Positions 2,954 through 20,325 of a stretch of 63,207 nucleotides of DNA are shown piece after piece. How positions within the stretch are numbered: position 1 is the first letter of the stretch; every line of letters begins with the position of its first letter. Origin of the DNA: Candidatus Rokuibacteriota bacterium (GTDB taxonomy: Bacteria; Methylomirabilota; Methylomirabilia; Rokubacteriales; CSP1-6); NCBI GenBank assembly GCA_016184305.1, contig JACPCX010000177.1:1-63207 (forward strand), written 5' to 3'. Below the pieces are notes generated by a model, which did not search any database, was not told the origin of the DNA, and was given only the letters and a program-made list of their open reading frames with translations. The position numbers and the translations under genes were made by a program.

Positions 2954-2995
2954 GGCTCCTCCTTCGGAGGGCATTCGTCAACCTATTGAACGACG

Positions 2996-3112: not shown

Positions 3113-3199
3113 TGTCCGTCTACTGCCCTCCGGGGCCCGAAGTCGAAAAATGCGCGGAGCCAGAGGACGTTGGCCGGCTCCGGGGATCCGGTGCCTCGC

Positions 3200-3215
3200 T
3201 GGCAGCCCGGTTGCA
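3200..3215 (+). promoter_or_regulatory. sigma54 promoter for the M50 protease gene
   Basis: TGGCAGCCCGGTTGCA (GG-N10-GC). Confidence 0.75.
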
Positions 3216-3279
3216 CTGCAGAGCCTGGATGTCGCAGGGGCGGATCGGCGCGATGGTTACCACGGGGGGAGAGAGGGAT

Positions 3280-4410: not shown

Positions 4411-4466
4411 CGGCGTCGCCGCGGCCCGAGCGAGTGCGCCTCCGAGCCGTGGGAGTCCGTCGGGGG

Positions 4467-4785
4467 TTACCAGGGAAAATCCGGGTCGTCCTCGATCTTC
4501 TGCTCCCTCCGGAGCGCGGCGAGCACGTCGCGTCCCGTGAGGATGCGGACCAGGTTGCTGTCCCCGACGACGGGCAGACTTCCGATGCGCCGCTGGAACA
4601 TGGTGAGGCCGGCCTGGGCGAGCGTCGCCTCGGGCTGGATAGTCGCCACCGACCACGTCATTACGTCCCGGACCCGCCGGGCCTTGAGCATCTGGGGCGC
4701 CGCCCCGACGTGCCCGGCGAGCGCGGGGACGAAGACGGCGTGCTCGATGTCCCGATCGGTGAGGCTCCCGAGGAGGCGCCCGGCC
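4467..4785 (-). pseudogene. 5'-truncated CBS domain protein
   Basis: GRLLGSLTDRDIE..VRDVMTWSVATI..RIGSLPVV. Most of the first CBS domain is missing. Confidence 0.65.
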
Positions 4786-4949
4786 CATAGGAAACATTAC
4801 CGCCAGTTCGCATCACGCTCCCCCATGCAGCGGGCATCCAGGACCCCCTGAAAGGCCCCGGCGTCGTCGAGCCGCCGGCCCCGGACCCGCTTCCTGGAGC
4901 CGAGACCGCCCGGCTCTGATCCGGCTCCTGCGGCGATCCTGCTCCCGGG

Positions 4950-5180
4950 GTCGGCGTTGCGCCCTTCGCGCGCGAAGCTCCGGCGCCAGGGCGACGGATA
5001 GACCTCCGCCACCACCGACCGCCCGACCGGGATGTCCCAGCCGTCGAAGGGCCAGAAATGGACCCGGTCACCCGCCTGCTGGCAGACGTAGGCGCAGCCA
5101 CGGCAGGCCGGCGTGGGTGGACTTGGCCACCGAGCCCTGCACGTCGAAATGGCAGACTGACTTGGCCGCGCCAGCCCGTA
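4950..5180 (-). pseudogene. Frameshifted fragment of a conserved hypothetical protein
   Basis: SVCHFDVQGSVAKSTHAGLPWL in one frame continues as GDRVHFWPFDGWDIPVGRSVVAEVYPS in another. Confidence 0.55.
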
Positions 5181-5293
5181 CCCGCAAGATCGAACACTTC
5201 GGGGGCTCGGAGTATGCGCACCTGGCGCGCGGTTGTCCCGAGTGGGGCGCCGTCGCCCCACGGCTCTCCCTGCGGCCCCTGAGGGATTCGATC

Positions 5294-5307
5294 ATGGCCT
5301 GCATCGT
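5294..5307. promoter_or_regulatory. Degenerate Crp/Fnr-type box (possible autoregulation)
   Basis: ATGGCCTGCATCGT, 12/14 identical to the box at 10759. Confidence 0.45.
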
Positions 5308-5366
5308 GTAATCGATGGGGATGACATAAGAAAGGACGCCGCCGCCCCTGTGTTATCCTGGCGCCG

Positions 5367-6068
5367 ATGTCCGCCCGCGAGGTGCAGTCGTTCCTGAAGC
5401 ACAGTCCCGTCTTTGCCTCGCTCCCGGCGCGAGAGATCGAGACCCTCAGCGCCGTCGTCTCCGAGGACAGCTTCCGCGCCCGCGACTACGTCTTCATGGA
5501 GGGCGACCCGTCCCTGTCGCTGTGCATCGTCAAGTCCGGGCGGGTCAAGATCGTCAGGCACTCGCGATCCGGCAAGGACGTGGTGCTGGAGCTGCTCGGG
5601 CCGGGAGAGCTCTTCGGCGGCGTCGCGGTGATCGAGAAGCGCCCGTACCCGGCCAGCGCCCAGGCCACCGAGCCCAGCGTGATCCTCAAGCTCCCCGCCG
5701 ACGCCGTCATCGGTCTCTCCGAGCGGTACCCGACGGTGATCAAGGAGATGGCCCTCATGATCGGCCGCCGGCTCCGGGACGCGCATGACTCGGTGAAGTC
5801 ACTCGCCGTGGACCCCGTGGAGGCGCGCCTCGCCGCGACGCTCATCCGGCTGGGAGAGCGCGAGGGGACCAGGAGCCGGCAGGGGCTCACGCTCCCCTTC
5901 CATCTGACCCGACAGGGGCTGGCCGACATGACGGGCACCACGGTCGAGACGACCATCCGGGTCTTGAGCCGTTGGTCGAAGGACGGGCTGATCCTCGACG
6001 ACGGGGGCCGGCTCATCCTCACCGATCTCGAATCACTCCGCGCCCTCGCCCAGGGCGAGGAAGCGTAG
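5367..6068 (+). CDS. Crp/Fnr family regulator (DNR/HcpR/NnrR-like, no FNR Cys cluster)
   Basis: cNMP-binding fold (FMEGD..SGRVKI..GPGELFG..YPASAQA) and HTH with TVETTIRVLS (E-x3-R). Confidence 0.93.
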   Translation: MSAREVQSFLKHSPVFASLPAREIETLSAVVSEDSFRARDYVFMEGDPSLSLCIVKSGRVKIVRHSRSGKDVVLELLGPGELFGGVAVIEKRPYPASAQATEPSVILKLPADAVIGLSERYPTVIKEMALMIGRRLRDAHDSVKSLAVDPVEARLAATLIRLGEREGTRSRQGLTLPFHLTRQGLADMTGTTVETTIRVLSRWSKDGLILDDGGRLILTDLESLRALAQGEEA

Positions 6069-6094
6069 CCCACGTCCCCTCGGCCGGATATCCC

Positions 6095-6538
6095 GTGCCC
6101 CCGCTCATCCGCCGCTACATCAAGACGAGCTTCCTCTTCCTCCTGACCGGCCTGCTCCTCGGCGGCTATATCCTCGTGGGCGAGTTCGCCGTCGGCGCCT
6201 ATCCCCCGCGGCTCATGATCACCGCGCATGCGCATCTGCTCCTCGTGGGCTTCATGCTCATGATCGTCATGGGCGTCGCGACGTGGATGTTCCCGCGCCC
6301 GGGCCGCGACGACACGCATTACCGACCAGAGCTGGCGGAGGCCGTCTACTGGCTCATGACGTCGGGGACCGCGCTGCGCGCCGTCGCCGAGGTGTGGGGC
6401 GGCTTCTCGCCCGCGCCATTCCTCCGGCTCGCCATCGCCCTCGGCGGTCTCGCCCAGCTCGCCGGAGCCGCGCTCTTCGTCCTGAACATGTGGTGGCGCG
6501 TCCGGATGCCCACCGTCGCTCCCCCGCCCTCACGGTAA
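6095..6538 (+). CDS. Four-helix membrane protein with HxH motif (COX1-like fragment family)
   Basis: YIKTSFLFLL..TAHAHLLLVGFMLMIVMGVATWMFPRP. Confidence 0.75.
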   Translation: MPPLIRRYIKTSFLFLLTGLLLGGYILVGEFAVGAYPPRLMITAHAHLLLVGFMLMIVMGVATWMFPRPGRDDTHYRPELAEAVYWLMTSGTALRAVAEVWGGFSPAPFLRLAIALGGLAQLAGAALFVLNMWWRVRMPTVAPPPSR

Positions 6539-6622
6539 CCGCAGTACCGCTCGCGCGGACCCCCCGGCTACCGGTGGAGTCCGTGCCGCGGTGGCGTCCC
6601 GGCTTGTACCCCCCTTCACCAC

Positions 6623-6640
6623 CTATGACAAAGGTCATAG
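6623..6640. promoter_or_regulatory. Crp/Fnr-type palindromic operator
   Basis: Perfect palindrome CTATGAC-AAAG-GTCATAG (TGA-N6-TCA), about 50 bp upstream of the DUF542 gene. Confidence 0.75.
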
Positions 6641-6689
6641 AGAGGGCCCAAGACCTCCGGTAGCCTGACAGGCAAGGAGGAGACAGACC

Positions 6690-6941
6690 ATGACGCACTC
6701 TTGCGGTTGCCATTCCGCCGGTTCCCCGGAGATCTCGAAGGCGCTGCCGGCCTTCACCGCCGAGCAGACGGTGGAGGCGGTGTCGCGCCTCTCCCCAGGC
6801 GCGCTCGACGTGATGAAGGGCATGGGCATCAATCACTGCTGCGGCGGCCACCTCACGCTGCGCGAGGCCGCAGCCTCGGCGGGACTCGCGCTGGAGGCGC
6901 TGATCGAGGCCCTGCAGCGGACGGAGGGCGCGACGGCATGA
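6690..6941 (+). CDS. DUF542 (ScdA_N / RIC N-terminal) domain protein
   Basis: MGINHCCGGHLTLREAA, matching the RIC/YtfE DxCCGG motif. Strong RBS AAGGAGG. Confidence 0.85.
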   Translation: MTHSCGCHSAGSPEISKALPAFTAEQTVEAVSRLSPGALDVMKGMGINHCCGGHLTLREAAASAGLALEALIEALQRTEGATA

Positions 6942-7822
6942 TCTCGGCCGATTTCACCCTCGCCCGCCTCCTGGACGAGCACCCCGAGCTCGTGGAGGTG
7001 CTCGCGGATCTCAATCCGCACTTCAAGCATCTCCGCAATCAGCTGCTGCGCAAGGTGATGGCGCCGCGGGTCACCGTGGCGCAGGCCGCGCGCATCGCCG
7101 GCGTGCCGGAGGAGCAGATGCTGGAGGCGCTGAGGCGCGCGCTGGGCGAGCCGGCGGCCCCGGCCCCTTCCCCCGCCCTCTCCCCGCAGAGCACAGTTGG
7201 CTGCCCCGCGCCCTCCCTCTGCGAGGAAGAGGGCGGGAGCGGGCACGAGGGGAGAGGCGCCGAGGAGGGTGGATCGGCCATACCCGCGGCGCTGGCCGCC
7301 GTGCCCGCCTCGCGCCAGGTGCACATCGACGTCCGCCAGGACATCGCGCGCGGCCAGGAGCCCTTTGCCCGCATCATGGGCGCCGTCAAGGGGCTCGGCG
7401 AGGGCGACGTACTCGTGCTCCGCGCGCCTTTCGAGCCCGTCCCGCTCTACGACGTGCTCGGCAAGCGCGGCCTCGCCCACTGGTCCGAGCCCCTCGGCGC
7501 GGCCGACTGGCGGGTGTGGTTCTACCGGGAGGCTGCCGTGGCCGGCGCGGCAGACGCAGCCGCGCCATCAGCGCCGTCCGCCCCGGCGCCGAGCGTCATC
7601 GTGCGCATCGACGTCCGGGGACTCGAGCCGCCGCAGCCGATGGTGCGCGTGCTCGAGCAGCTGGACGGGCTCGGGGCCGGCCAGGGGCTCGAGGTGATCC
7701 ACGACCGGCGCCCGCTCTTCCTCTACCCACAGCTCGACGAGCGCGGCTTTGCGCATGACACCGACGAGCCCGAGGCCGGCGTGGTCCGTATCCTGATCCG
7801 GCGGAAGAGCGCCACGGGATGA
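6938..7822 (+). CDS. DUF1858 + tandem DUF2249 (TusA/SirA-like) domain protein
   Basis: LLDEHPELVEVL..TVAQAARIAGV, DVRQDIARGQEPFARIM..APFEPVPLY, and DVRGLEPPQPM..HDRRPLFLYPQL. Confidence 0.85.
   Translation: MISADFTLARLLDEHPELVEVLADLNPHFKHLRNQLLRKVMAPRVTVAQAARIAGVPEEQMLEALRRALGEPAAPAPSPALSPQSTVGCPAPSLCEEEGGSGHEGRGAEEGGSAIPAALAAVPASRQVHIDVRQDIARGQEPFARIMGAVKGLGEGDVLVLRAPFEPVPLYDVLGKRGLAHWSEPLGAADWRVWFYREAAVAGAADAAAPSAPSAPAPSVIVRIDVRGLEPPQPMVRVLEQLDGLGAGQGLEVIHDRRPLFLYPQLDERGFAHDTDEPEAGVVRILIRRKSATG
7175..7258. repeat. Palindromic REP-like element embedded in frame in the DUF2249 gene linker
   Basis: CCTCTCCCC (7177-7185) pairs with GGGGAGAGG (7249-7257), with a nested CCCTCT/AGAGGG stem. Confidence 0.55.
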
Positions 7823-9123
7823 CCCCGCCCCGCCCGGGTGGCGGCGTCCCGTCGGTCACACTGCCCCTTCGTTACATGGTCGCCGCGGCCATCGCCTTCG
7901 TCCTGGCGGCGGCAGGCACCGTGTGGCTTGCCTCCGAGCTGGCGGGCCACTACTACCAGCCCCGCGTCGTGGCGCTCACCCACACGGTGACCCTCGGCTG
8001 GATCACGCTCACGATCATGGGGGCAAGCTATCAGCTCGTCCCCATCGTCCTCGAGCGGCCGGTCTGGAGCGAAAGGCTCGCGCGCTGGCAGTTCCTGATC
8101 CTGGCGGGCGGGATCGCGGGCATGATCGCGCACTTGTACCTCGGCACCTGGCCGGGGCTCGGGCTGGCGGCGGGCGTCGTCGCCCTCGGCGCCACGCTCC
8201 ATCTGATCAACGCCCTGGCGAGCCTCCGGGGCGTCAGGACCTGGAGCTTCACCTCGCGGCTCCTGGCGGTGGCGCTCTCGGGCCTGGCCCTGACCGTCCT
8301 CTTTGGCCTCGCCCTGGCGGCGGACCGCCTCTGGAAGTTCCTGCCGGGAGAGTTCTTCCCCACGCTGCACGCCCACTTCCACCTGGCGCTCCTCGGCTGG
8401 GTGGCGCCGATGGTGATGGGCGTGGCGGCGCGCGTGTATCCCATGTTCCTCCTCGCCCGCGATCCGGAAGGGTGGCCCGGGGCGCTGCAGCTCTGGGGCC
8501 TCGCGCTCGGCAGCCCCGTCGTGGCGCTCGGGCTCCTCGCGGTGCCCATCCTCGTCCTCCCCGGGGCGCTGGCCGTCGGGGCCGCCGTCGCCGGACACCT
8601 CGCGTGGGTCTCCGAGATGGCCGCCAGCCGCAAGCGGCCGGCGCTGGACTGGGGGCTCCGCCTCGCGCTCACCGGCACGGCATTCCTCATCCCGGCGGGC
8701 CTCATGGGCCTCGGCTTCGCCGCGGACATGCTTGGCGGACCCCGGATGGGGCTCGCCTACGGCGTGCTCGCCCTCGGCGGCTGGGTCTCCCTCACCATCG
8801 TCGGCATGCTGTTCAAGATCGTGCCCTTCCTCGTCTGGTATCGCGCGTACAGCCCCAAGGCGGGGAAGGCGCCGGTGCCGACCCTCGCCCAGCTGTCGTG
8901 GCCGAGGGCCGAGGCCTGCACCTATGGGCTCCTCACCGTGGGCGTGAGCGCGCTCGCGCTCGCCGTGGGTGTGGGCGATCCCCTCTGGATCGGCGGCGCA
9001 GGCGCCATCGTCGTGCTCGGGGCGCTTGCCTTCGCGGTCTCGCTGGCGCGCGTGCTGACACATCTGGCGCCCACCCCGGGACGCCACCTTCCTGCCAGCA
9101 CGCTCAGCGTGCACACGCGATGA
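7819..9123 (+). CDS. Polytopic membrane protein with conserved His (COX1-/NnrS-like), DUF2249-associated
   Basis: About 12 hydrophobic segments; LTHTVTLGW, LHAHFHLALLGW, GMLFKIVPFLVW. Confidence 0.8.
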   Translation: MTPPRPGGGVPSVTLPLRYMVAAAIAFVLAAAGTVWLASELAGHYYQPRVVALTHTVTLGWITLTIMGASYQLVPIVLERPVWSERLARWQFLILAGGIAGMIAHLYLGTWPGLGLAAGVVALGATLHLINALASLRGVRTWSFTSRLLAVALSGLALTVLFGLALAADRLWKFLPGEFFPTLHAHFHLALLGWVAPMVMGVAARVYPMFLLARDPEGWPGALQLWGLALGSPVVALGLLAVPILVLPGALAVGAAVAGHLAWVSEMAASRKRPALDWGLRLALTGTAFLIPAGLMGLGFAADMLGGPRMGLAYGVLALGGWVSLTIVGMLFKIVPFLVWYRAYSPKAGKAPVPTLAQLSWPRAEACTYGLLTVGVSALALAVGVGDPLWIGGAGAIVVLGALAFAVSLARVLTHLAPTPGRHLPASTLSVHTR

Positions 9124-10559
9124 GCCTCTTCGACCGCGCGCCCTTCATCGTGATCTGGGAGACGACCCGCGCCTGCGCGCTGTCCTGCGTGCATTGTCGC
9201 GCCGAGGCGATCTCCCGCCGCGATCCTGGCGAGCTCACCACCGAGGAAGGGAAGCGGCTGCTGGACCGCGTCGCGGCCTTCGGCGATCCCGCGCCGATCC
9301 TCGTGCTGACCGGGGGGGATCCGCTCCGCCGCCCCGACATCACCGAGCTCGTGTCCCATGGCACGGCGCGCGGCATCAGCATGTCGCTCACACCCAGCGG
9401 CACCGCCGCCGTCACCGAGCCGCGGCTCCGCGCCCTGCGCGATGCCGGGCTGGCCCGGCTCGCGGTGAGCCTCGATGGCGCCACGGCGGAGGCTCACGAC
9501 GCCTTCCGCCGGGTCCGCGGCTCCCACCGCTACACCATGCGCATCATCGAGCACGCGCGGGCGCTCTCGCTGCCGCTCCAGATCAACACGACCGTCTGCA
9601 AGCAGACGCTGCGCGATCTGCCGGCGCTCGCGCGGCAGATGGAGGAGTACGGCGTCGTCCTCTGGGCCCTCTTCTTCCTGATCCCCGTGGGACGGGCCGT
9701 GGCGGATCAGGGGCTGCCCGCGGAGGAGATCGAGCGGGTGCTCGAGTGGGCGGCCGATCTCGCCACGCGGGCCCCGTTCGGCGTCAAGACCACCGAGGCG
9801 CCCCACTACCACCGCGTGCTCGCTCAGCGGGGCCAGTCGAGCCGGCCGGCGAGCATCGGGGCCGACGCCGCTCCCGGCCGCCCCGTGGCGGCCGCCCCCG
9901 GCCTCATCGGACGCGCCGGCCGCGCCGTCACGGACGGCAACGGCTTCGTCTTCGTCGATCACGTGGGCCGGATCTGCCCCAGCGGCTTCCTCCCCATGCC
10001 GGCGGGCAATGTCAGGACCGACGACCTGGTCGCCGTGTACCGCGAGCACCCGCTCTTCACGTCCCTGCGCGATCCCGCCCGGCTCGGCGGCCGCTGCGGC
10101 CGCTGCGAGTACCGCGATGGCTGCGGCGGAAGCCGGGCGCGCGCGTGGGCCGCGTCGAAGGACCCGCTCGCCGAGGACCCCGGCTGCGCCCATGTGCCGG
10201 GGCGCGCGCGTCCCGGGTCTGCGTGTGCCGCGACGGCCGCCCCCGTGATCGCGGGAGGATCGGATGCGCGTCCCGAGGTCACCGGAGAGCAGGTGACGCA
10301 GGCGCTCCGGACGGTGTTCGATCCAGAGCTCGGGATGTCCATCGTCGAGCTCGGCCTTGTCTACGGCATCGCCATCGACAACGGCGCAGTCAGGATCACG
10401 ATGACGCTGACGACGCCGGGCTGCCCGATCCAACACGTCATGCTTCAGTGGGTCCGGGAAGCCCTGATGCCAGTCCCCGGGGTGGAGCAGGTCGAGGTGG
10501 CCATCACCTTCGACCCGCCGTGGACGCCGGAGCGCATCATGCTCCCCTCGTCCCGCTGA
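9120..10559 (+). CDS. Radical SAM/SPASM protein (TIGR04053 / AhbD-NirJ-like) fused to C-terminal DUF59 (SufT/PaaD-like)
   Basis: WETTRACALSCVHCRA, LTGGDPL, SPASM CGRCEYRDGCGGSRARA..DPGC, then DPELGMSIVELGLVY..TTPGCP..FDPPW. Confidence 0.9.
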   Translation: MSLFDRAPFIVIWETTRACALSCVHCRAEAISRRDPGELTTEEGKRLLDRVAAFGDPAPILVLTGGDPLRRPDITELVSHGTARGISMSLTPSGTAAVTEPRLRALRDAGLARLAVSLDGATAEAHDAFRRVRGSHRYTMRIIEHARALSLPLQINTTVCKQTLRDLPALARQMEEYGVVLWALFFLIPVGRAVADQGLPAEEIERVLEWAADLATRAPFGVKTTEAPHYHRVLAQRGQSSRPASIGADAAPGRPVAAAPGLIGRAGRAVTDGNGFVFVDHVGRICPSGFLPMPAGNVRTDDLVAVYREHPLFTSLRDPARLGGRCGRCEYRDGCGGSRARAWAASKDPLAEDPGCAHVPGRARPGSACAATAAPVIAGGSDARPEVTGEQVTQALRTVFDPELGMSIVELGLVYGIAIDNGAVRITMTLTTPGCPIQHVMLQWVREALMPVPGVEQVEVAITFDPPWTPERIMLPSSR

Positions 10560-10757
10560 CCCGACTCCACCGCCCCACACAGCCCGGGGGCACCCGGCCC
10601 ATTGACAGCGTCCCGGGCGCCTGTCGTCCGCGTCCGCCTCCGGGACCTGGCCGAGCTCCGCGTCAAGAACTCCGGCGCCGGACGGCCGCGACCCAGCTCG
10701 GCCCGGGCCGGAGGGGAACCGGCGGCGGCCCCTCCCGCGCAGGCGGATTCTTCTCCG

Positions 10758-10773
10758 TATGACCTGCATCATA
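10758..10773. promoter_or_regulatory. Crp/Fnr-type operator upstream of the HCO/eNOR operon
   Basis: TATGA-CCTGCA-TCATA, same arms as the 6623 box. Confidence 0.7.
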
Positions 10774-10848
10774 GGGTGCGGTTCCGCCCGCATTCTACCG
10801 TCTGGTCATCACGCGGGGTGCTTCACCCACTCACACGGAGGGCGAGGA

Positions 10849-11019
10849 ATGGCGGACAAGGGCGGCGCGCGCGGCAAGGATCCGGAGGAGAAAGTCCCAC
10901 TGGCCCAGGCGTTCTTCGACAACATCTTCCTGCTGCTCGTGCTGGGGATCGTGGTCCCCACCGTCTTCTACACGATCTGGGGTCTCTTCGAGATCGCCAG
11001 CATCCCGCTCGCGAAATAG
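10849..11019 (+). CDS. Small single-TM subunit of the heme-copper enzyme (subunit IIa-like)
   Basis: FFDNIFLLLVLGIVVPTVFYTIWGLFEIASIPLAK, immediately upstream of subunit II, with RBS. Confidence 0.8.
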   Translation: MADKGGARGKDPEEKVPLAQAFFDNIFLLLVLGIVVPTVFYTIWGLFEIASIPLAK

Positions 11020-11029
11020 GAGGACCGCC

Positions 11030-11557
11030 ATGAGCCTGCAGACTCTCCAGGGCGTCTGGTGGAAGAAGGTCGACGCGAGCGAGAAGATGTGGATCGGCAT
11101 CGCGCTGGTCTGGTGCCTGATCCTCTTCGCCATGATGCCGCTCTGGCATCTCAAGGGCGGGCAGAACCCCTCCTTCGAGACCTACCGGACCAGCCCCGAG
11201 CAGTTCCTGAAGAAGGTCGAGGCCTTCGTGGAAAAGGGGCCCAAGGCGGGTGAGGAGAAGGGCCTTCCGGTGATCGCCCCCGATCCGAAGACCGAGGTCT
11301 TCATGCTGGGGCGCCTCTGGCAGTGGTACCCGGCGCTCAAGCTGAAGAAGGGCGAGACCTACCGCCTGCACCTCTCCTCCATGGATCTGGTCCACGGCTT
11401 CTCCCTCTTCCCCCTCAACCTGAACTTCATGGTTCTTCCGGGCTACGAGTACGTCCTGACCATCACGCCGACCACCACGGGCGAGGTCTTCGTGGTCTGC
11501 AACGAGTTCTGCGGGATCGGGCACCACCAGATGGTGGGCAAGATCACGGTCGAGTAG
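11030..11557 (+). CDS. Heme-copper oxidase/eNOR subunit II (CuA)
   Basis: One TM helix, DLVHGF and CNEFCGIGHHQM CuA ligands. Confidence 0.93.
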   Translation: MSLQTLQGVWWKKVDASEKMWIGIALVWCLILFAMMPLWHLKGGQNPSFETYRTSPEQFLKKVEAFVEKGPKAGEEKGLPVIAPDPKTEVFMLGRLWQWYPALKLKKGETYRLHLSSMDLVHGFSLFPLNLNFMVLPGYEYVLTITPTTTGEVFVVCNEFCGIGHHQMVGKITVE

Positions 11558-11568
11558 AGGAGACAAGC

Positions 11569-13236
11569 ATGGAAGCCGTCTACAGAACCTGCGCGCAGAC
11601 CGGTCTCAAGGTCCACAACCACGCCGAGCGCCTCATCAGGGCGAACGCCGTGGCCGGCGTCGTCTCGATTCTCTTCGGCGGCATCGCGGCCATCCTGGTG
11701 CTGCTCACACGGTGGCCGGCAGTGCACCTGCTGGATCCCACCAGCTTCTACCGGGCGCTGACCTTCCACGGCATCAACATGCTCATCTTCTGGATCATCT
11801 TCTTCGAGGTCGCCGTCCTGTACTTCGCGGGCCCCATCGTGCTGGGCTCGCGCCTGGCCTGGCCCAGGATCGGGTGGGTCTCCTTCGTCCTCATGGTGGC
11901 GGGTACGCTCCTCATCAACATCGCCATCCTGCAGGGCAAGGCCGACGTGATGTTCACCTCCTACGCTCCGATGCAGGCCGCGTCCCACTTCTATCTCGGC
12001 TGGATCCTCTTCGCCGTGGGCGCGCTGGTCGCGGTCTGCAACTTCTTCGCGAGCCTCGTGGTGGCCAAGGCCGAGCGCACCTACACCGGCTCCATCCCGC
12101 TCGTCACCTTCGGGGCGGCCACCGCCGGCATCATCGCGGTCGTCACGCTGGCCCACGGTGCCATCATCTACATCCCCACCTGGCTCTGGTCGCTGGGGAT
12201 CATCGAGAAGATCGACCCGGGAATCTACCGCCTGATCTGGTGGGGCCTCGGCCACTCCTCGCAGCAGATCAACGTGACCGCCATGGTCAGCATCTGGTAC
12301 CTCCTGGCCACGCTCACCGTCGGCGCGACGCCCATCAACGAGAAGGTGTGCCGCTCGGCCTTCCTCCTCTACATCCTCTTCATCAACCTGGCCTCGGCCC
12401 ACCACCTGCTCGTGGACCCGCAGCTGTCCCCCGCGTGGAAGATCTGGAACACCAGCTACGGCATGTACCTGGCGGTGCTGGCCAGCATGATCCACGGCAT
12501 GACGGTGCCCGCCTCGGTGGAGGTGGCGCAGCGGAAGAAGGGCCTCACCAAGGGGCTCTTCGAGTGGCTCGCCAAGGCGCCCTGGGGCAATCCGGGCTTC
12601 GCGGCGCTCGCGCTGTCGCTCTCCCTCTTCGGCTTCATCGGCGGCATCACCGGCGTCACCTTCGGCGCCGAGCAGATCAACATCATCTCCCACAACACGC
12701 TCCGGATCACCGGCCACTTCCACGCCACCGTGGTGGCGGGCACGACGATCGCCTTCATGGGGCTCACCTACTACGTGGTGCCGCTCATCTTCCGGCGCCA
12801 TCTGATCTCCACGAAGCTCGCCACGGCGCAGATTTACCTCTTCGGCATCGGCATGACGATCTTCATCGGCGGCATGACGACGGCCGGCTCCTACGCCATC
12901 CCGCGGCGCCACTGGGACGTGCAGTTCGCCACGTCGCTCTTCCAGCCGCCGGTGGAGGCCGCAGCGTTCGCCTTCCTGGGCATCATGGGCGTGGGCGGAC
13001 TCTTCGCGCTCGCGGGCGGCGCTCTCTACGTGCTGATCACGGTGGGCTCGGTGCTCTTCGGGCGCCGCGTGCCTGACACCCCCGGCGCGGTCCCGCTGGC
13101 CGCCATGCCCCAGGACAAGGGGCAGCACGTGCCGATCAAGGGCACCACGGTCCTGGTCCTTGTCTTTCTCGCATCCTTCATCATCTACTACTTCCTCAAC
13201 TGGAAGTGGCTGGCCGCCATCTGGATCGTGAAGTGA
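11569..13236 (+). CDS. Heme-copper superfamily subunit I, eNOR-type nitric oxide reductase
   Basis: All six His present (LTFHG, GLGHSSQQ, SAHHL, TGHFHA). The HPEVY Tyr position is Gln. Confidence 0.85.
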   Translation: MEAVYRTCAQTGLKVHNHAERLIRANAVAGVVSILFGGIAAILVLLTRWPAVHLLDPTSFYRALTFHGINMLIFWIIFFEVAVLYFAGPIVLGSRLAWPRIGWVSFVLMVAGTLLINIAILQGKADVMFTSYAPMQAASHFYLGWILFAVGALVAVCNFFASLVVAKAERTYTGSIPLVTFGAATAGIIAVVTLAHGAIIYIPTWLWSLGIIEKIDPGIYRLIWWGLGHSSQQINVTAMVSIWYLLATLTVGATPINEKVCRSAFLLYILFINLASAHHLLVDPQLSPAWKIWNTSYGMYLAVLASMIHGMTVPASVEVAQRKKGLTKGLFEWLAKAPWGNPGFAALALSLSLFGFIGGITGVTFGAEQINIISHNTLRITGHFHATVVAGTTIAFMGLTYYVVPLIFRRHLISTKLATAQIYLFGIGMTIFIGGMTTAGSYAIPRRHWDVQFATSLFQPPVEAAAFAFLGIMGVGGLFALAGGALYVLITVGSVLFGRRVPDTPGAVPLAAMPQDKGQHVPIKGTTVLVLVFLASFIIYYFLNWKWLAAIWIVK

Positions 13237-13243
13237 GGCGGTC

Positions 13244-14668
13244 ATGCGCACATCGGGCCATCGCATCCCCTCTCCCTCCCTCGGGGGGGAGAGGGAGATC
13301 AGCTCGCTCACGGTCGTGCCGGCCGCCACCCGGCGGCTCCTGATCGGGTGGCTCTCGCTCGCGCTGGCGTCGTTGGTGGTGGCCGGCATCTTCGCCGCGA
13401 TCGCCGCCTTCGCGCGCACGCCGGTCGTCCACACCCTCTTCTCCCCCAACGCGTTCCGGCTGGCGCTGACCTCGCACGTCACCTTCGCCTTCACCGTCTG
13501 GTTCGTCACCTTCGCGGGCGTGCTCTGGATCTACGTGGCCTGGCGGTCCAACTACCCCCTGGGCGTCGGCGCCTCCTGGGCCGCGCTGTCCCTGGCCGCG
13601 CTGGGCTCGGCGGCCATGGCGGTGCCGGCCTTCCTGGCCTCGGGCCAGCCCTACCTCAACGACTATCTCCCCGTGATCGACCAGCCGTTTTTCTGGGCAG
13701 GCCTGGTCCTGGTGGCGGCGGGCTTGAGCCTGGAGGCCGCGGCCTATCTGGCCGCCGCACTCCAGGGCGAGCGCCGGGCGCGGCGCCAGGGCGCGGCAGC
13801 CGGCTCGCCCGAGGGGCTCGCCATGGCGGCGGGCGCCGTCGCCATGCTGCTCGCCGTCGCGGCCACCGTGCTCGCCTTCTGGCGCCTCGATCCGGCCCTG
13901 CCCTTCGGCTACTCGCTCCGCGCCCTCGTCTGGGGCGGCGGGCACATCCTCCAGTACCTGCATGTGACCGGCATGGCCACGGGGTGGATCGTCGCCATCT
14001 CGGTGGCCCTGGTCACCGTGTTTCCCGCGCGCCGCGTCCTCCGGATACTCCTCTGGGTGCTCCTGCCCTTCATGGCGGCGGCCACCGCCTCGTACCTGGT
14101 GTGGCGGCCCGAGGAGCTCCTCATCAACCACCTGATCACGATCCTCACCTTCGGCGGCCTCGGCGCCGCCGGGGTGCCCGTGTTCTTCATGGCGGCGAGC
14201 GCCGTGGTGGCGGCGGGGCGCCCGCTGCCGTGGGCGAGCCCGCTCTTCGGCGGCACCGTCGTCTCCTTCGCGCTCTACGCCATCGGCGGCGTCATGGGGC
14301 TCATCGGCTTCACCCAGGACACGCGAGTGCCGGCCCATTACCACGGCATGGTCGGCGCCGTGACGCTCGCCTACATGGGGCTCACGCCCATGCTGCTCGA
14401 GATCTGCGGCCGCCGCCCGTGGAGCGCGAGGCTCACCCGGTGGCAGCCCTATCTCTACGGCATCGGGCTCCTCGGCATCATGATCGGCATGCACTGGGCC
14501 GGCGGGCACGGCGCCCCGCGAAAGACCTTCGGCTTCACCTGGGCCACTGCGCAGGCCATCCTGGGGATGAACATCATGGGGGCCGGCTCCGTACTCGCGA
14601 TCCTGGGCGGGCTCGCCTTCGTGCTCAACATGGGAATCCCGCTCGTCACGCGGAGGCGCCAATGCTGA
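13244..14668 (+). CDS. Degenerate heme-copper subunit I paralog (COX1 fold)
   Basis: About 12 TM; LTSHVTF, WGGGHILQ, VPAHYHG, GAPRK. The HH pair is absent. Confidence 0.75.
   Translation: MRTSGHRIPSPSLGGEREISSLTVVPAATRRLLIGWLSLALASLVVAGIFAAIAAFARTPVVHTLFSPNAFRLALTSHVTFAFTVWFVTFAGVLWIYVAWRSNYPLGVGASWAALSLAALGSAAMAVPAFLASGQPYLNDYLPVIDQPFFWAGLVLVAAGLSLEAAAYLAAALQGERRARRQGAAAGSPEGLAMAAGAVAMLLAVAATVLAFWRLDPALPFGYSLRALVWGGGHILQYLHVTGMATGWIVAISVALVTVFPARRVLRILLWVLLPFMAAATASYLVWRPEELLINHLITILTFGGLGAAGVPVFFMAASAVVAAGRPLPWASPLFGGTVVSFALYAIGGVMGLIGFTQDTRVPAHYHGMVGAVTLAYMGLTPMLLEICGRRPWSARLTRWQPYLYGIGLLGIMIGMHWAGGHGAPRKTFGFTWATAQAILGMNIMGAGSVLAILGGLAFVLNMGIPLVTRRRQC
13268..13295. repeat. CCCTCTCCC..GGGAGAGGG palindrome at the 5' end of the paralog gene
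   Basis: CCCTCTCCC-N10-GGGAGAGGG, same family as the 7175 element. Confidence 0.55.
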
Positions 14669-15531
14669 TCGCCGCCTACGTCGAGTCGCTCAAGCTGCGC
14701 GTCGGCACCTTCATCGGCATGGCGGCGGTCCTCGGTTACATCGCCACGGCCCCCGCGGGTCTGGCGCTGCCGTCGCTGGCAATCCTCTTCGCCGTCACCG
14801 TCATGGCGGCGGGCGGCGCGGGCGCGCTGAACCATTTCCTCGACCGGGACCTCGACGCCCGGATGCCCCGCACCGCCAGGCGTCCCCTGCCCTCGGGGCG
14901 CATCCGCCACCCCTGGCACGTGGTGGCGCTGGGGCTGGGGCTCGTGATGCTCGCGGTGAGCCTGGCCCTGTGGCAGCTGAACCGGCTGGTCGCTCTTCAC
15001 GTGTTCCTCGGGGCCTTCACCTACGTGGTCGTCTACACGATCTGGCTCAAGCGGCGCTCCTGGCTCAACGTGGTGATCGGCGGACTGGCCGGCTCCTTCG
15101 CCGTGCTGGCGGGCGGCGCGCTGGCCCGCCCCGAGCTCTGCCTGCCGCCGGTCATCTTCGCCGCCGTGCTCTTCTTCTGGAGCCCGTCGCATTTCTGGTC
15201 TCTCGCCATCGCCTACAAGACCGAGTATGCGGGAGCCCTGATCCCCATGCTCCCCGCGGTCAAGGGAGAGGCCCGCACCGCCCGGAGCATCCTTCTCAAC
15301 ACGGTGGGGCTCCTGGCCTCGAGCCTCCTGCCCTTCGCCCTCGGCATGCTCGGCTGGGTCTACCTCGTCCTCGGCGTGCTGCTCGGTGGAGGACTCCTCC
15401 TGACTCGCAACCTGCAGCTCGCGCGCCGGCCGGGGGACCGAAGGCTCGCGCTCACCAACTTTCACGCCTCGAACCTCTTCCTCCTGCTCCTGTTCCTGGC
15501 CGTGGTCATCGACGTCGTGGCTCGACGCTAA
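14662..15531 (+). CDS. ctaB: Protoheme IX farnesyltransferase (heme O synthase)
   Basis: NHFLDRDLDARMPRTARRPLPSG, YTIWLKRRS, FWSPSHFWSLAI..EY..IPMLP. Confidence 0.93.
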   Translation: MLIAAYVESLKLRVGTFIGMAAVLGYIATAPAGLALPSLAILFAVTVMAAGGAGALNHFLDRDLDARMPRTARRPLPSGRIRHPWHVVALGLGLVMLAVSLALWQLNRLVALHVFLGAFTYVVVYTIWLKRRSWLNVVIGGLAGSFAVLAGGALARPELCLPPVIFAAVLFFWSPSHFWSLAIAYKTEYAGALIPMLPAVKGEARTARSILLNTVGLLASSLLPFALGMLGWVYLVLGVLLGGGLLLTRNLQLARRPGDRRLALTNFHASNLFLLLLFLAVVIDVVARR

Positions 15532-15684
15532 GCCTGCGCGCGCACCGGGCCAGCGGGGCCTGGCGAGGCGCCGGGCCGCCTGGAGGCGGGCTTCCTGCCG
15601 ATCACATACGCTCATGCGGCTGGCAGGCCCACTTCCTGCTAAGGTAGGGGCCGACCCGAGACAGCTGGGAGGGCAAGCCGAAGC

Positions 15685-17208
15685 GTGCGCGCGGGAATCG
15701 GCCGGCAGATCAACATCGCCATCGGGGCGGGCTTCGCCCTCGTCCTCGTGGTGGGCGGAATCTCCGTGCTGCTGGCCTGGACCATCTCCGCGGGAGTTGA
15801 GGAGGGGCGGCACCGGCGGTTCGAGGTCGATGCCATCAACCGGATCCACAGCACCGTTCACCACTTCGTCGCTCACCTCCACCTGGCGCTCCTGGGCACT
15901 GCAGCGCCCGGGCACCCGTCCCCCGCGGAGATCCTCGACGAGCTGAAGCGGCGGATCGCCGCATACCATGCCTTCGAGCGGACCCAGGGGAGCGATGAGT
16001 CACGCCAGGAGCTGGGTCGCCTCTCGGAGCTGCAGGCCCTGGTGGCCCAGCTCGAGGTCGCCTCCCGAGCGGTGCTCGGGGCCCTTGGCCGAGGTCAGCC
16101 ACCCACCGCCGCCGAGGTGGTGGCCATCAACGAGCTGGCCCATGAGCGGGTCGCGGGAATCGTCCAGGAGCTGCACACCGTACACGAGCGGAAGCTCGAG
16201 CGCGCCATCGACGGAACCCAGCGGCGGATGTTCCTGATCTCGAGCTTGTACGTGACGTTCGCGGTGGGCGGCGCATCGCTGCTCCTCCTCGGCAACCGGT
16301 TCCTGTCCCGGCGCCTCGTCTCGCCCATCGGCCGTCTCGCCCAGGCTGCCCTGCGCATCGCCGGTGGCGACCTCGCCCAGCGCGTTCCCGTCCGATCCGG
16401 GGACGAGGTGGGGCGGCTCTCCCGGGCGTTCAACGTCATGACCGAGCGCCTGGAGGCGCACGAGGCCGAGCGGCTGAACTTTCAGGCGGAGCTCGAGCGG
16501 CAGGTCAAGGAGCGAACGCGCGAGCTCGAGGACACCGCAGCAAGGCTCCAGGCCACGCAGGCCGAGCTCATCCGGTCCGAGCGGATCGCCGTGACGGGCC
16601 AGATCGCGGCCGGGGTCACGCACGAGATCCGCACCCCCCTCAACTCCCTCGCGATCAACGTCCAGCTGCTCCGCCGGGAGCTCTCGGCCGAGGCCGCCCC
16701 GGCGTCGCTGCGCGAGGCCCTCGGCACCTTCGCCATGGTGGAGTACGAGATCACGCGGATCAACCGGATCCTGGAGGAGTTCGTCAGGTTCGCGCGTCTC
16801 CCGGCGCCGCGGTTCGAGACCGTCGAGATCGGCGCCCTCCTGCAGGAGATCCTTGGGCTGCTGGGCCCCCAGGCGGCCAGGGCCGGCGTGCGCCTCGAGG
16901 CCCGGCGGCTCTCGCCGGGGGCCGCCGTGAGAGGGGATCCGGATCAGCTGCGCGAGGTCTTCCTCAACCTGGGCCAGAACGCGCTGCAGGCCATGCCGAA
17001 CGGGGGCGCGCTCGGCCTGGAGGTGACCCGGGAGGCGATCTTCGTTCCCTTCGTCAGCAGCAAGGCCGACGGTCTCGGCCTCGGGCTTCCCATCGTCAAG
17101 CGGATCGTCGAGGAGCACGGGGGAAGCGTGTCGTGCCAGAACCGTGTCGGGGGCGGGGCCAGCTTCCTCGTCCGGCTTCGCGCCGCCGGGCCCTCCACCG
17201 GGGGGTGA
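15685..17208 (+). CDS. HAMP sensor histidine kinase; ATPase domain lacks the G1 box
   Basis: 2 TM, HAMP, HEIRTPLN, N box LNLGQNALQAM, then directly IFVPF and GLGLGL. Confidence 0.8.
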   Translation: MRAGIGRQINIAIGAGFALVLVVGGISVLLAWTISAGVEEGRHRRFEVDAINRIHSTVHHFVAHLHLALLGTAAPGHPSPAEILDELKRRIAAYHAFERTQGSDESRQELGRLSELQALVAQLEVASRAVLGALGRGQPPTAAEVVAINELAHERVAGIVQELHTVHERKLERAIDGTQRRMFLISSLYVTFAVGGASLLLLGNRFLSRRLVSPIGRLAQAALRIAGGDLAQRVPVRSGDEVGRLSRAFNVMTERLEAHEAERLNFQAELERQVKERTRELEDTAARLQATQAELIRSERIAVTGQIAAGVTHEIRTPLNSLAINVQLLRRELSAEAAPASLREALGTFAMVEYEITRINRILEEFVRFARLPAPRFETVEIGALLQEILGLLGPQAARAGVRLEARRLSPGAAVRGDPDQLREVFLNLGQNALQAMPNGGALGLEVTREAIFVPFVSSKADGLGLGLPIVKRIVEEHGGSVSCQNRVGGGASFLVRLRAAGPSTGG

Positions 17209-17211
17209 GCG

Positions 17212-18561
17212 GTGGAACACCTCATCCTCCTGGCCGAGGACGATTCCCACACGCGCGAGGGCCTGCGCCGGGCCATGACGCGGGCCGGGTACCGGACGCT
17301 GACGGCAGCTGACGGGGGGGCGGCCCTCGCCATCCTGAAGTCGGAAGCCGTCGATGTTCTCCTCTCCGACCTGAAGATGCCGGGCGTGGACGGCATGGCC
17401 CTGCTCGACCGGGTCCGGGCCGATTTTCCGGAAACGGCCGTGATCATCCTCACGGGCTTCGCCACCGTCGGCCTCGCCGTCGAGGCGATGAAGAAAGGCG
17501 CCTACGACTTCCTCACCAAGCCCATCGATCTCGGCAAGCTCGAGCTTCTGCTGGGGCACGCCCTGGAGGCCCGGAGACTCACCCGGGAGAACCGCGAGCT
17601 CAGGCTCCGCCTGCGCGAGACCGCCGGGCTCAAGCCGCTCCTGGGTCGCTCCGCCGCCATGCAGCGCCTCCGGGAGACGATCGAGCTGGTGGCCGCCACC
17701 GATGCGGCGGTCCTGGTCCTCGGGGAAAGCGGCACGGGGAAGGAGCTGGCGGCGCATGCCATTCACTACGGCGGGGCGCGGGCCGAGCGCCCCTTCGTCA
17801 AGGTGAGCTGCGCCGCGCTTCCCGACGGGCTGCTCGAGTCGGAGCTGCTCGGTCACGAGCGCGGGGCCTTCACCGGCGCCCGGGACCGACGCAAGGGCCG
17901 GTTCGAGCTGGCCCACGGGGGCACGCTGTTCCTGGACGAGGTGGGAGACATGAGCCCCCAGACCCAGGCGAAGCTCCTCCGCGTCCTCCAGGAGCGGGAG
18001 TTCGAGCGGGTGGGCGGGACGGACACGATCCGCGTGGACGTCCGGCTCATCACCGCCACCAACCGCGACCTCGAGGGCCTCGTGGCCGAGGGCGCGTTCC
18101 GCGAAGATCTCTACTACCGGCTGAATGTCGTTCCCCTCCGGATGCCGCCCTTGCGCGAGCGCGTCGAGGACATCCCGGCCCTGACGGCGCATTTCCTCGG
18201 CGCCTGCGCCGAGCGGTGGGGCAAGCCCATCCCGGAACCGACCCCCGAGGCCCTGGCGCTCCTCTGCCGCTACTCCTGGCCCGGCAATGTCCGCGAGCTG
18301 CAGCACGTCGTGGAGTCCATGCTCGTGTTCTCGCGGGGCGGCCCGATTGCGGCCGAGGACCTCCCTCCTGCCATTCGGGGCGACGAGAGGACTCCCGATC
18401 CGGCAGAGCGCCACTCCGGAGCCACGCTCCGGAACCTTGAGCGCCAGGCTGTCGCCCGGACGCTTCTCGCCACCGGCGGGAACCGGCGCAAGGCGGCCGA
18501 GATCCTGGGGATCGGGCTCAAGACCCTCTATCGGAAGATCCAGGAGTTCCATCTCCGGTAG
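17212..18561 (+). CDS. sigma54-dependent response regulator (NtrC/AtoC family)
   Basis: REC (EDD, SDLKMP), GESGTGKE, GAFTGA, LDEV, Fis HTH. Confidence 0.95.
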   Translation: MEHLILLAEDDSHTREGLRRAMTRAGYRTLTAADGGAALAILKSEAVDVLLSDLKMPGVDGMALLDRVRADFPETAVIILTGFATVGLAVEAMKKGAYDFLTKPIDLGKLELLLGHALEARRLTRENRELRLRLRETAGLKPLLGRSAAMQRLRETIELVAATDAAVLVLGESGTGKELAAHAIHYGGARAERPFVKVSCAALPDGLLESELLGHERGAFTGARDRRKGRFELAHGGTLFLDEVGDMSPQTQAKLLRVLQEREFERVGGTDTIRVDVRLITATNRDLEGLVAEGAFREDLYYRLNVVPLRMPPLRERVEDIPALTAHFLGACAERWGKPIPEPTPEALALLCRYSWPGNVRELQHVVESMLVFSRGGPIAAEDLPPAIRGDERTPDPAERHSGATLRNLERQAVARTLLATGGNRRKAAEILGIGLKTLYRKIQEFHLR

Positions 18562-18619
18562 AAGTCTCCGAAGCTGCCTCCTGTCTCCTCCCGCCCGCGG
18601 CCGCGTGGCCGGTAGCCCT

Positions 18620-18664
18620 TGTCATCTTGACCGCAACGGACTGGCCCGGCGAGTCGTTTTGACA
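18620..18664. promoter_or_regulatory. Paired bEBP enhancer sites
   Basis: TGTCATCTTGAC and GTCGTTTTGACA, about 3 helical turns apart, 100-140 bp upstream of the sigma54 promoter. Confidence 0.55.
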
Positions 18665-18763
18665 AACCCGGCTGCCGCGGCTCCCCCCCGGACATTCGCT
18701 CTCTGCCGCCCAGGGCCCCGTGCTTGAAGCGGTTCTGGCGCCGGAGCCTCGTGTCGCCTCACG

Positions 18764-18779
18764 TGGCACCCCCTGTGCT
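18764..18779 (+). promoter_or_regulatory. sigma54 promoter
   Basis: TGGCACCCCCTGTGCT (GG-N10-GC). Confidence 0.65.
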
Positions 18780-18797
18780 GGTGGGACTGGCACTGCG

Positions 18798-19178
18798 ATG
18801 AGACAGCCGGAGTCGATCCTGGTCGTGTCGCCAGATGCCACCAGCCTGCAGGGGCTGACGCGAGTGCTCCTGCAGGGGGGGCTGCCGGTGACCGCGGCCC
18901 TGGGGTGGGCCGAGGGGGAGTCCCGGCTCCAGCGAGTTCCCGTCTCTCTGCTCGTCGCGGACATCGAGGAGGTGGGCCCTGAGGAGCTGATCCTGCTCCG
19001 CCGCCTGCGGGCCGGGTTTCCTCACGTGGGGATCATCGCGCTGGTCTCCCTCTCCACCTCGGAGGCCCGGGCGGCCAAGGCCGAAGGCCTCGTGCTGGCC
19101 ATCCTCGACAAGCCCATCGCTCTCGCCCAACTGGAGGAGGCCGTGAGCTCGGCCCTCTCCCGCAAGGCCTTGCGGTGA
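18798..19178 (+). CDS. Atypical single-domain receiver protein
   Basis: ILVVSPD..LLVADIE..LDKP. The first acidic pair is degenerate. Confidence 0.6.
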   Translation: MRQPESILVVSPDATSLQGLTRVLLQGGLPVTAALGWAEGESRLQRVPVSLLVADIEEVGPEELILLRRLRAGFPHVGIIALVSLSTSEARAAKAEGLVLAILDKPIALAQLEEAVSSALSRKALR

Positions 19179-19327
19179 ACATCATCCTGGCCTCGCCCTG
19201 GCGGCGACGCTCCTGCTGGCCTGGGGCCGGGGATTCATGATCGAGCCCGTGGTGAAGGAGCATGAGGGTGCCGCGGGGGTACGGAGGAGCGACGGGGAGC
19301 ACACCACCGAGAAAAGGGGGACGAACG

Positions 19328-20089: not shown

Positions 20090-20325
20090 GACAAGGAGAA
20101 CGGTCTCCCCTGAGGCGAGCAGCGATGCCGACCTCAGCCGAAGGGGCGAGCCGAGCCCTCGGATGGTGGAGAGGCAAACAGGCACACACTCTGGCGCGCG
20201 GCTTAGAGCAATCGGGCTCTTGTTGCTCTCTTGTCGCCGGGGGCGGCCTTCGCTGGCCGTCCGCCGGACACCGAGGAGACGGGCACGGTGGAGACTGAAA
20301 TGAACCCCCGGTGGGGAGGAGCGCC

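Follow-up and report, generated by a model that had tools for sequence, protein, structure and literature searches.

Three forward-strand genes at positions 10849 to 13236 of the stretch of DNA analyzed here very probably encode a nitric oxide (NO) reductase of the eNOR family, derived from the B-family (ba3-type) heme-copper oxidases. The stretch, hereafter called the window, is 63,207 nucleotides long and represents contig C123 of a 3.2-Mb metagenome-assembled genome from the order Rokubacteriales, in 239 contigs, with a completeness of 88.8%, a contamination of 1.9%, and a G+C content of ~70%. All absences that we report for the genome are valid within this 88.8%-complete assembly. Close homologs carry the names Candidatus Rokubacteria or Methylomirabilota, and index share pointed to the window stretch in metagenomes of groundwater and soil from no fewer than 14 studies in addition to a possible source study; no RNA datasets were listed for positions 10759 to 14668. 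A preliminary description of the window had read the apparent cytochrome c oxidase as an eNOR, pointing to six metal and heme histidines and an HSSQQ segment in subunit I and to a CuA site in subunit II. Our alignments bear out each of these observations.

Subunits and signature residues

Subunit I (11569 to 13236, forward strand) is the catalytic subunit of 555 amino acids (aa) that holds the heme and the non-heme metal, and it matches the Pfam family COX1 (PF00115) with an E-value of 5e−62. Its gene, like the two genes upstream of it in the operon, is preceded by a GGAGG-like ribosome-binding site. All six histidine ligands are kept, namely, H67, H229, H278, H279, H383, and H385, with codons at 11767, 12253, 12400, 12403, 12715, and 12721, respectively. 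A HMMER alignment to subunit I of the Thermus thermophilus ba3 oxidase (E-value of ~1e−41) places H229 opposite H233, H278/H279 opposite H282/H283, and H383-x-H385 opposite H384/H386, and H67 is the helix-II heme ligand. Residues 228 to 233 read GHSSQQ where the ba3 enzyme has GHPIVY, and Q233 stands opposite Tyr237, the cross-link tyrosine. The best solved relatives of subunit I are the T. thermophilus ba3 oxidase chains, with none closer in the PDB, and the 23 PDB matches comprise ba3, other B-type, aa3, and quinol oxidases and no NOR chain.

Subunit II (11030 to 11557, forward strand; 175 aa) has one membrane helix and a CuA cupredoxin domain (PF00116), and it aligns to subunit II of the ba3 oxidase with an E-value of 1.6e−13. 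All five CuA ligands (H122, C157, C161, H165, and M168) are aligned to ba3 CuA ligands, and Glu18 occupies the position of ba3 E(II)15. A homolog of subunit II is present in all 84 eNOR loci of other phyla that we compared by BLASTP (E-value of 1e−5, coverage of at least 50% or at least 40%). The first gene of the operon (10849 to 11019, forward strand) encodes a single-helix membrane peptide of 56 aa that has no match in Pfam. A homolog of the peptide lies directly 5′ of subunit II in 47 of the 84 loci and in 21 of 22 Rokubacteriales eNOR-type loci; by analogy with subunit IIa of the ba3 oxidase, it is probably a small third subunit.

The eNOR family was first proposed by Hemp and Gennis in 2008, as cited in PMC11214002. 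According to Table A4 of PMC8756737, eNOR subunit I is defined by a conserved glutamine where O2 reductases carry the cross-link tyrosine, and the same paper gives asparagine at this site for sNOR and glutamate for cNOR and qNOR. The eNOR of Rhodothermus marinus DSM 4252 has been purified and is reported to reduce NO with a kcat of 0.68 per s at 25°C, to leave O2 unreduced with a range of donors, and to contain heme As in both heme sites (Murali 2024, PMC11214002). That study also describes CuA subunits, a K-channel-like path, and frequent CtaA genes for eNORs and His/Lys ligation of the low-spin heme in some of them. In its Dataset S1, residues Q245, S318, H321, Y256, and E(II)21 of the R. 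marinus enzyme are listed opposite Y237, S309, T312, Y248, and E(II)15 of the ba3 oxidase, and the eNOR column is blank at ba3 Y244. The window residues aligned to this set are Q233, S306, H309, Y244, and E(II)18, with Val240 at the position of ba3 Y244, and the low-spin heme ligation is His/His (H67 and H385). As far as aligned residues can tell, the window enzyme has the eNOR signature, including the glutamine site, the K-channel set, the subunit-II glutamate, CuA, and the six histidines. The eNOR-type identity that the preliminary description had derived from the glutamine thus agrees point for point with the signature in PMC8756737 and in Dataset S1 of Murali 2024.

The published active-site residues of the other families that lack the tyrosine allow us to exclude them, as none of these residues occurs here. 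bNOR (CuANOR), sNOR, nNOR, and gNOR are likewise related to the B family and have lost the tyrosine. However, bNOR and sNOR carry asparagine at the site (N245/N243), and nNOR carries glutamate together with a His/Met low-spin heme, where the window enzyme has Gln233 and His/His ligation. In gNOR an active-site histidine is changed to aspartate and subunit II is devoid of CuA ligands, whereas all three metal-site histidines and all CuA ligands are kept in the window. cNOR and qNOR have a C-family-related NorB with a glutamate ligand and use cytochrome c or quinol as the donor; the window enzyme has a CuA cupredoxin subunit II, and its PDB matches are free of NOR chains. The H-x-x-V-Y cross-link motif of B-family O2 reductases is also missing because the tyrosine is replaced by glutamine.

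The T. thermophilus ba3 oxidase (PDB 1EHK and 1XME) is the closest solved structure and shares with the window enzyme the fold, the set of subunits (I, II, and a small peptide), the six histidine ligands, the CuA site, and the K-channel positions S309, Y248, and E(II)15. The two enzymes differ at ba3 Tyr237, Val236, Tyr244, Thr312, and Phe272, which correspond to Gln233, Gln232, Val240, His309, and Tyr268 in the window, and subunit I is only ~30% identical to B-family sequences. By the published residue tables, the likeness to the R. marinus eNOR extends to the glutamine at the tyrosine site, the Ser/His/Tyr K-channel set, the subunit-II glutamate, and the CuA subunit II. Both enzymes also have heme A pathway genes alongside and are mislabeled as oxidases in databases. 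In contrast to R. marinus, the window operon contains an additional copper-less paralog of subunit I between subunit I and ctaB, and CtaA is encoded outside the operon, elsewhere in the genome. The gene for CtaA (heme a synthase) lies on contig C149, beside an A-family oxidase, and its presence together with that of ctaB in the operon fits the heme A-type cofactors of eNORs. We infer that the window enzyme contains such cofactors, as well as the identity of its active-site metal, and by analogy with the R. marinus enzyme, it would reduce NO and would not reduce O2.

In the mechanism that we propose, electrons from a periplasmic carrier would enter at the CuA center of subunit II, pass the His/His low-spin heme (H67 and H385), and reach a binuclear site formed by a high-spin heme (H383) and a metal on H229, H278, and H279, where two NO molecules would be converted to N2O. 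The cross-link tyrosine, the source of the fourth electron for O2 reduction, is replaced by Gln233. Protons would probably come from the cytoplasm along a K-channel-like path made up of Glu18 of subunit II, Tyr244, His309, and Ser306, and uptake from that side would render the NO step electrogenic.

Relatives of subunit I and alternative chemistries

A search of a 5.8-billion-protein collection with subunit I gave at least 8000 matches, of which the best 120 were 61 to 97% identical. Every named protein among these 120 is called cytochrome c oxidase subunit 1 or cbb3-type oxidase, the mislabeling that the preliminary description had expected. A tblastn search against plasmids returned 47 records, led by Defluviimonas (56% identity), ten T. 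thermophilus plasmids (48 to 49%), and the megaplasmid of Thermomicrobium roseum (48%); identity then drops to ~27 to 32% in sequences annotated as b(o/a)3 oxidases. A scan of genome contigs provided 476 relatives, the best 80 of which (54 to 64% identity) came from Gemmatimonadota, Proteobacteria, and others, with no Rhodothermus among these 80.

To the subunit I sequences from these loci (three repeats of the window dropped) we added the A-family oxidase of the genome and twelve proteins from the collection and aligned all 104. H-x-x-Q-Q, S306, H309, and Y244 occur together in 97 of the aligned sequences, and the remaining 7 have the tyrosine. In a tree of this set (IQ-TREE quick search, LG+G4, 563 columns), all 97 of the Gln type are united on one branch with an SH-like approximate likelihood ratio test (SH-aLRT) support of 99, six B-family oxidases are on another branch, and a single row represents the A family. 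The window subunit I is placed among Rokubacteria-type proteins, next to a Gemmatimonadota group.

With 23 further loci, taken from genomes of the order, the alignment grew to 127 sequences, 118 of the Gln type and 9 of the Tyr type. H-x-x-Q-Q is invariant in all 118 homologs of at least 48% identity, which come from many phyla, and the tyrosine is present in all nine sequences of ~24 to 32% identity (six plasmid B-family oxidases, two Rokubacteriales B-type proteins, and the A-family oxidase of the genome). The two Rokubacteriales genes of the Tyr type (31% identity) have HxxVY, which indicates that genuine B-type oxidases are found in the order as well. S306 and H309 are likewise invariant in the Gln type, and the position of H309 is occupied by threonine or a gap in 9/9 Tyr-type sequences. 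His385 is missing in 3 of the 118 (lysine in two Thermus proteins and, in the alignment, leucine in locus L122). The Gln clade has other invariants of its own, namely, E80 (helix II), Q232, N235, N294, and D450. E80 (window positions 11806 to 11808) is found in 118/118 sequences of the clade, whereas oxidases have hydrophobic residues at this position; E80 and Tyr268 are absent from the published tables that we consulted.

Among 121 sampled genomes of the order, including that of the window, 22 have an eNOR-type match of 59 to 100% identity, and 14 more have only a match of ~31 to 34%; one of the 121, the unpublished genome G083, has only a 32% match and was counted in this tally alone. Of two other genomes of the same genus, one has a copy with 99% identity and the other, which is 98% complete, has none. 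Dataset S8 of PMC11214002 already tabulates eNOR in three Rokubacteriales genomes, with two entries for UBA12499 sp001788415 and one for each of two GWA2-73-35 species.

Subunit I of the T. thermophilus megaplasmids (e.g., AP031329.1 and NZ_AP024273.1) and of the T. roseum megaplasmid (NC_011961.1) is 48 to 49% identical to the window protein and shows the same QQ/S/H/Y pattern, and its gene has a TIGR04053 radical SAM enzyme and a DUF542 (ScdA_N) miniprotein as neighbors, as in the window. T. roseum has a CtaA-CtaB fusion 3′ of the eNOR genes. In the Thermus plasmid proteins, lysine replaces the second histidine of H-x-H, which implies the His/Lys low-spin heme that PMC11214002 describes for some eNORs, and nirS and an Rrf2 regulator adjoin. 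In two of these loci (L014 and L016, 7983 to 9668), subunit I reads H-F-K and not H-F-H and is followed by the Rrf2 regulator and the DUF542 miniprotein, and in T. thermophilus strain TF24 nirS adjoins the eNOR-type subunit I.

Several points weigh against the assignment to eNOR. The family placement is based on the signature residues, on tables from the literature, and on a tree whose outgroups come solely from the B and A families; that tree, the product of a quick search under a simple substitution model, shows long branches to the outgroups. No nirS, nirK, nosZ, cNOR, or qNOR gene was found in the 239 contigs, so that an internal source of NO is missing. Finally, a tyrosine in helix VII, Tyr268 (12370 to 12372; ba3 Phe272), is invariant in 118/118 Gln-type sequences, and its position is occupied by phenylalanine, leucine, or isoleucine in 9/9 Tyr-type sequences. 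Could Tyr268 substitute for the lost helix-VI tyrosine, as in cbb3 oxidases, and the enzyme still be an O2 reductase? The organism meets O2, as indicated by heme a synthesis and the aerobic A-family oxidase in its genome. Of the tyrosines that are invariant throughout the clade (Y61, Y132, Y142, Y244, Y268, and Y297), we considered two as clade-specific residues near the site, Y268 and Y244, the latter being the K-channel tyrosine that is also present in oxidases. Tyr268 lies 10 residues before His278/His279, which by helical geometry is ~15 Å along the helix toward the cytoplasm; the migrated tyrosine of cbb3 oxidases is ~6 residues before the histidine pair. At such a distance Tyr268 would be more plausible as part of a channel than as the partner in a cross-link. 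Moreover, PMC11214002 reports no sign of a migrated tyrosine in the models and sequences of these families and no O2 reduction by the purified R. marinus eNOR. We regard a retained O2 reductase as very improbable.

It is also very unlikely that the enzyme has a different substrate, such as N2O or peroxide, or dismutates NO and that the glutamine signature is not predictive of NO reduction here. In favor of such an activity, PMC11214002 presents an assay for one eNOR only, and subunit I is only ~48 to 56% identical to the named plasmid homologs. However, E80, Q232, Q233, N235, and H309 are invariant across the 118 sequences of many phyla, which argues for one conserved chemistry, and members of the clade adjoin nirS in Thermus.

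Operon neighbors, operator, and regulator

The gene that follows subunit I (13244 to 14668, forward strand) encodes the copper-less paralog, a protein of 474 aa that matches PF00115 over its full length (E-value of 1.2e−11) and is 23 to 28% identical to eNOR subunit I. In all 31 aligned members of this family (14 Rokubacteria type and 17 proteobacterial), the equivalents of H67, H229, H383, and H385 are kept and the histidine pair H278/H279 is changed to x-Tyr, leaving the heme ligands and one metal-site histidine. The paralog is located directly 3′ of subunit I in 15/15 Rokubacteriales loci of the 78 to 100% type with enough flank, and a relative is present in 17 of the 84 eNOR loci of other phyla; the isolate Piscinibacter caeni MQ-18, for instance, has a 55%-identical operon that includes the paralog. 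The large protein collection contains at least 179 relatives at an E-value of at most 1e−3 (among 8000 scored candidates), the named ones mostly from Rokubacteria; one relative of 774 aa is fused to a UbiA (heme o synthase) domain. A PDB sequence search with the paralog gave no match. Its likeliest function would be that of an assembly helper. We rejected a role as a stand-in for heme a synthase because CtaA is encoded in the genome, and two CtaA genes lie beside the paralog in loci L078 and L027.

The start of the next gene, which encodes the heme o synthase CtaB/CyoE (14662 to 15531, forward strand; TIGR01473 with 256 bits, cutoff of 210), overlaps the stop of the paralog gene. ctaB is found near eNOR in 43 of the 84 loci at a coverage of at least 50% and in 45 at a coverage of at least 40%. 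A SCO1/SenC copper chaperone (23442 to 24326, forward strand; PF02630 with 80 bits) probably functions in CuA assembly; homologs occur in 71/84 loci, and the gene directly adjoins ctaB in 6 of 7 Rokubacteriales loci. It is followed by a Pfam-defined fusion of cytochrome b, a 4Fe-4S dicluster domain, and FlpD (24067 to 26010, forward strand, with an uncertain start that is probably at ~24340). This fusion may be the electron input module. Homologs are present in 74 of the 84 loci, with the same architecture in L078 and L027, and some eNOR loci such as L078 have a second fusion of cytochrome b, 2Fe-2S, FAD, and NAD domains. A 2026 preprint treats similar cytochrome b fusion genes in Ferrigenium, and the conserved gene composition around eNOR is at least partly in print already.

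In the seven longer Rokubacteriales loci the order is operator, small peptide, subunit II, subunit I, paralog, ctaB, SCO, and cytochrome b fusion, and these are contiguous in six of them. The window departs from this arrangement in that six genes (15685 to 23090) are inserted between ctaB and SCO, which split the ancestral operon and moved SCO and the cytochrome b fusion 8 kb away. The inserted genes encode a histidine kinase and a sigma-54 response regulator, a diheme cytochrome c, a B12 radical SAM enzyme, and two proteins of 152 and 284 aa.

Upstream of the eNOR operon, profiles from Pfam and NCBIfam identify a four-gene accessory operon on the forward strand (6690 to 10559). Its first gene (6690 to 6941) encodes an 83-aa protein that consists of the ScdA_N domain only (PF04405 with 45 bits, cutoff of 32.5), the RIC N-terminal domain that the preliminary description had noticed nearby. 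The second gene (6938 to 7822) encodes a protein with DUF1858 and two DUF2249 domains, and the third (7819 to 9123) encodes a membrane protein of 434 aa with a weak likeness to COX1 at profile positions 302 to 402. The last gene product (9114 to 10559) is an AhbD-like TIGR04053 radical SAM/SPASM enzyme (457 bits) fused to a DUF59/FeS assembly domain. Just 5′ of this operon is the gene of a 137-aa membrane protein (6125 to 6538, forward strand) with a weak, partial COX1 likeness at profile positions 40 to 142. Related genomes of the order also have the 434-aa and the 137-aa proteins encoded close to eNOR. Neither protein has a PDB or family match, the PDB sequence search with the 434-aa protein having yielded only noise, and searches of the ESM Atlas yielded only unnamed or COX1-like clusters. 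The accessory operon is near eNOR in 5/7 Rokubacteriales loci. On the T. thermophilus plasmids, homologs of the ScdA_N and TIGR04053 proteins (37 to 48% identity) flank the eNOR genes next to nirS, and the TIGR04053 gene, which is 48% identical and unfused, is flanked by nirS and cytochrome c552 at a site next to the eNOR genes.

The two operons share a palindrome. The copy ATGACCTGCATCAT (10759 to 10772), the core of TATGAC-N4-GTCATA, is 77 bp 5′ of the first gene of the eNOR operon; the copy ATGACAAAGGTCAT (6625 to 6638) is 52 bp 5′ of the ScdA_N gene, and ATGATCTGGGTCAT (23311 to 23324) is 118 bp 5′ of the SCO gene. ATGA-N6-TCAT occurs five times in the window, with three copies in intergenic positions, compared with an expected number of 0.28, and none of 100 shuffles reached five. 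The exact motif lies 54 to 108 bp 5′ of the small gene in 20/21 loci of the order (19/20 without the window), where the spacers have otherwise diverged, and its usual form in these loci is TATGAC-N4-GTCATA. In the longer loci of the order the palindrome precedes the eNOR operon in 7/7 cases and the ScdA_N operon in 5/5. Outside the Rokubacteriales, a TGA-N6-TCA box is present in 42 of the 81 loci with enough upstream sequence. These boxes include 36 TTGA-N6-TCA(A/T) copies, mostly from Proteobacteria (TTGAC-N4-GTCAA type), and none of this type was seen among the loci named Gemmatimonadota. No classical FNR box (TTGAT-N4-ATCAA with at most two mismatches) was found upstream of the operon, and a scan of positions 4400 to 15800 for sigma-70 promoters gave 0 sites. 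Across the genome ATGA-N6-TCAT has 70 copies, mostly intragenic, and three genes downstream of such copies that we tested encode a secretin-like protein, a protein of unknown function, and an ABC ATPase, with no further nitrogen oxide gene or regulon member among them. Hence, the palindrome is a local operator and not a proven regulon marker.

The candidate protein that would bind this operator is a Crp/Fnr-family transcription factor (5367 to 6068, forward strand; PF00027 and PF13545). L143 and L144 have a 68 to 69% identical regulator gene next to the accessory operon, and a Crp-family gene occurs in 20 of the 84 eNOR loci. The best PDB relatives of the regulator are of the GlxR/Crp type (E-value of 1e−24), followed by FNR (1e−15) and DNR (1e−10), and its sequence is devoid of an N-terminal cysteine cluster. 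The preliminary description had spoken of a DNR-like regulator; the Crp/Fnr family and the Crp/Fnr-type palindrome stand, but the specific likeness to DNR is unproven. We consider it rather unlikely that the Crp/Fnr-type box defines a single Rokubacteriales regulon made up of the eNOR core, the 474-, 434-, and 137-aa relatives of subunit I, and the ScdA_N/DUF2249/radical SAM operon, in which the paralog would be a scaffold for heme As insertion or a heme-only NO enzyme or sensor and scavenged NO would be respired via an electrogenic eNOR fed by the cytochrome b/4Fe-4S/FlpD fusion.

Nitrogen oxide genes and the role of the enzyme

The genome has five genes that match PF00115, namely, those for the A-family oxidase on C149, eNOR subunit I, and its three relatives encoded in the window (474, 434, and 137 aa), and hence the assembly contains no cNOR or qNOR. 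The preliminary description had suggested searching the genome for nirK or nirS and nosZ; this search was run and came back empty. For nosZ, no match reached the cutoff with two models in the 88.8%-complete genome, and tblastn with NirS of the Thermus plasmids found nothing in the genome. We rejected a NirK candidate on C144 (85 bits, cutoff of 296), a two-domain multicopper oxidase that has the motifs HWHG, HSH, HPMHLHGH, and HCHELHH and whose best NCBIfam match is CopA-like with 190 bits. Matches to cytochrome d1 (PF02239) were likewise rejected as NirS because they are partial (33 to 37 bits) and represent beta-propeller fragments, the one in the window being a YNCE-like beta-propeller. As candidates for nitrate reductase the genome has two enzymes of the type II dimethyl sulfoxide reductase family (C65 and C144), which score below all cutoffs, and NapA-like fragments on C34 and C95. 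The molybdoenzymes on C65 (approximately 915 to 19016) and C144 (7793 to 10642) are Nar/Nxr/Ebd-like, with heme b gamma subunits fused to c-type cytochrome domains, and the set on C65 adjoins an Rrf2 regulator and a sigma-54 two-component pair.

What, then, would be the role of the enzyme? In R. marinus, eNOR is accompanied by napA, nirS, nirK, and nosZ (PMC11214002), whereas nir and nos genes were not found in the window genome. We hold it possible, at somewhat short of an even chance, that the eNOR only detoxifies or scavenges NO from neighbors or from chemistry, outside a denitrification chain, a role that is compatible with its identity as an eNOR. Besides the lack of detected nirS, nirK, and nosZ genes, such a role is favored by the operator that the eNOR operon shares with the operon for the ScdA_N (RIC N-terminal) and DUF2249 proteins and by the patchy distribution of the gene, which occurs in 22/121 genomes of the order and is missing from the 98%-complete genome of the same genus. 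On the other hand, nir genes may be unassembled in a genome of this completeness and number of contigs, and Dataset S8 of PMC11214002 lists nirS or nirK beside eNOR in three Rokubacteriales genomes.

In summary, the eNOR family is published, has been assayed, and is already tabulated for the Rokubacteriales, and the window enzyme is therefore an ordinary member of low novelty. The points worth a further look are the operator, the copper-less paralog, and the absence of nir genes; of the parts described here, only the operator and the paralog open a new, modest question. The main value of our analysis is a correct annotation, as the oxidase labels of these proteins hide an NO sink and a source of N2O. 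Because no nitrite reductase was found, the lineage may consume NO made by others, and the use of such NO as a substrate would bear on models of partial denitrification.

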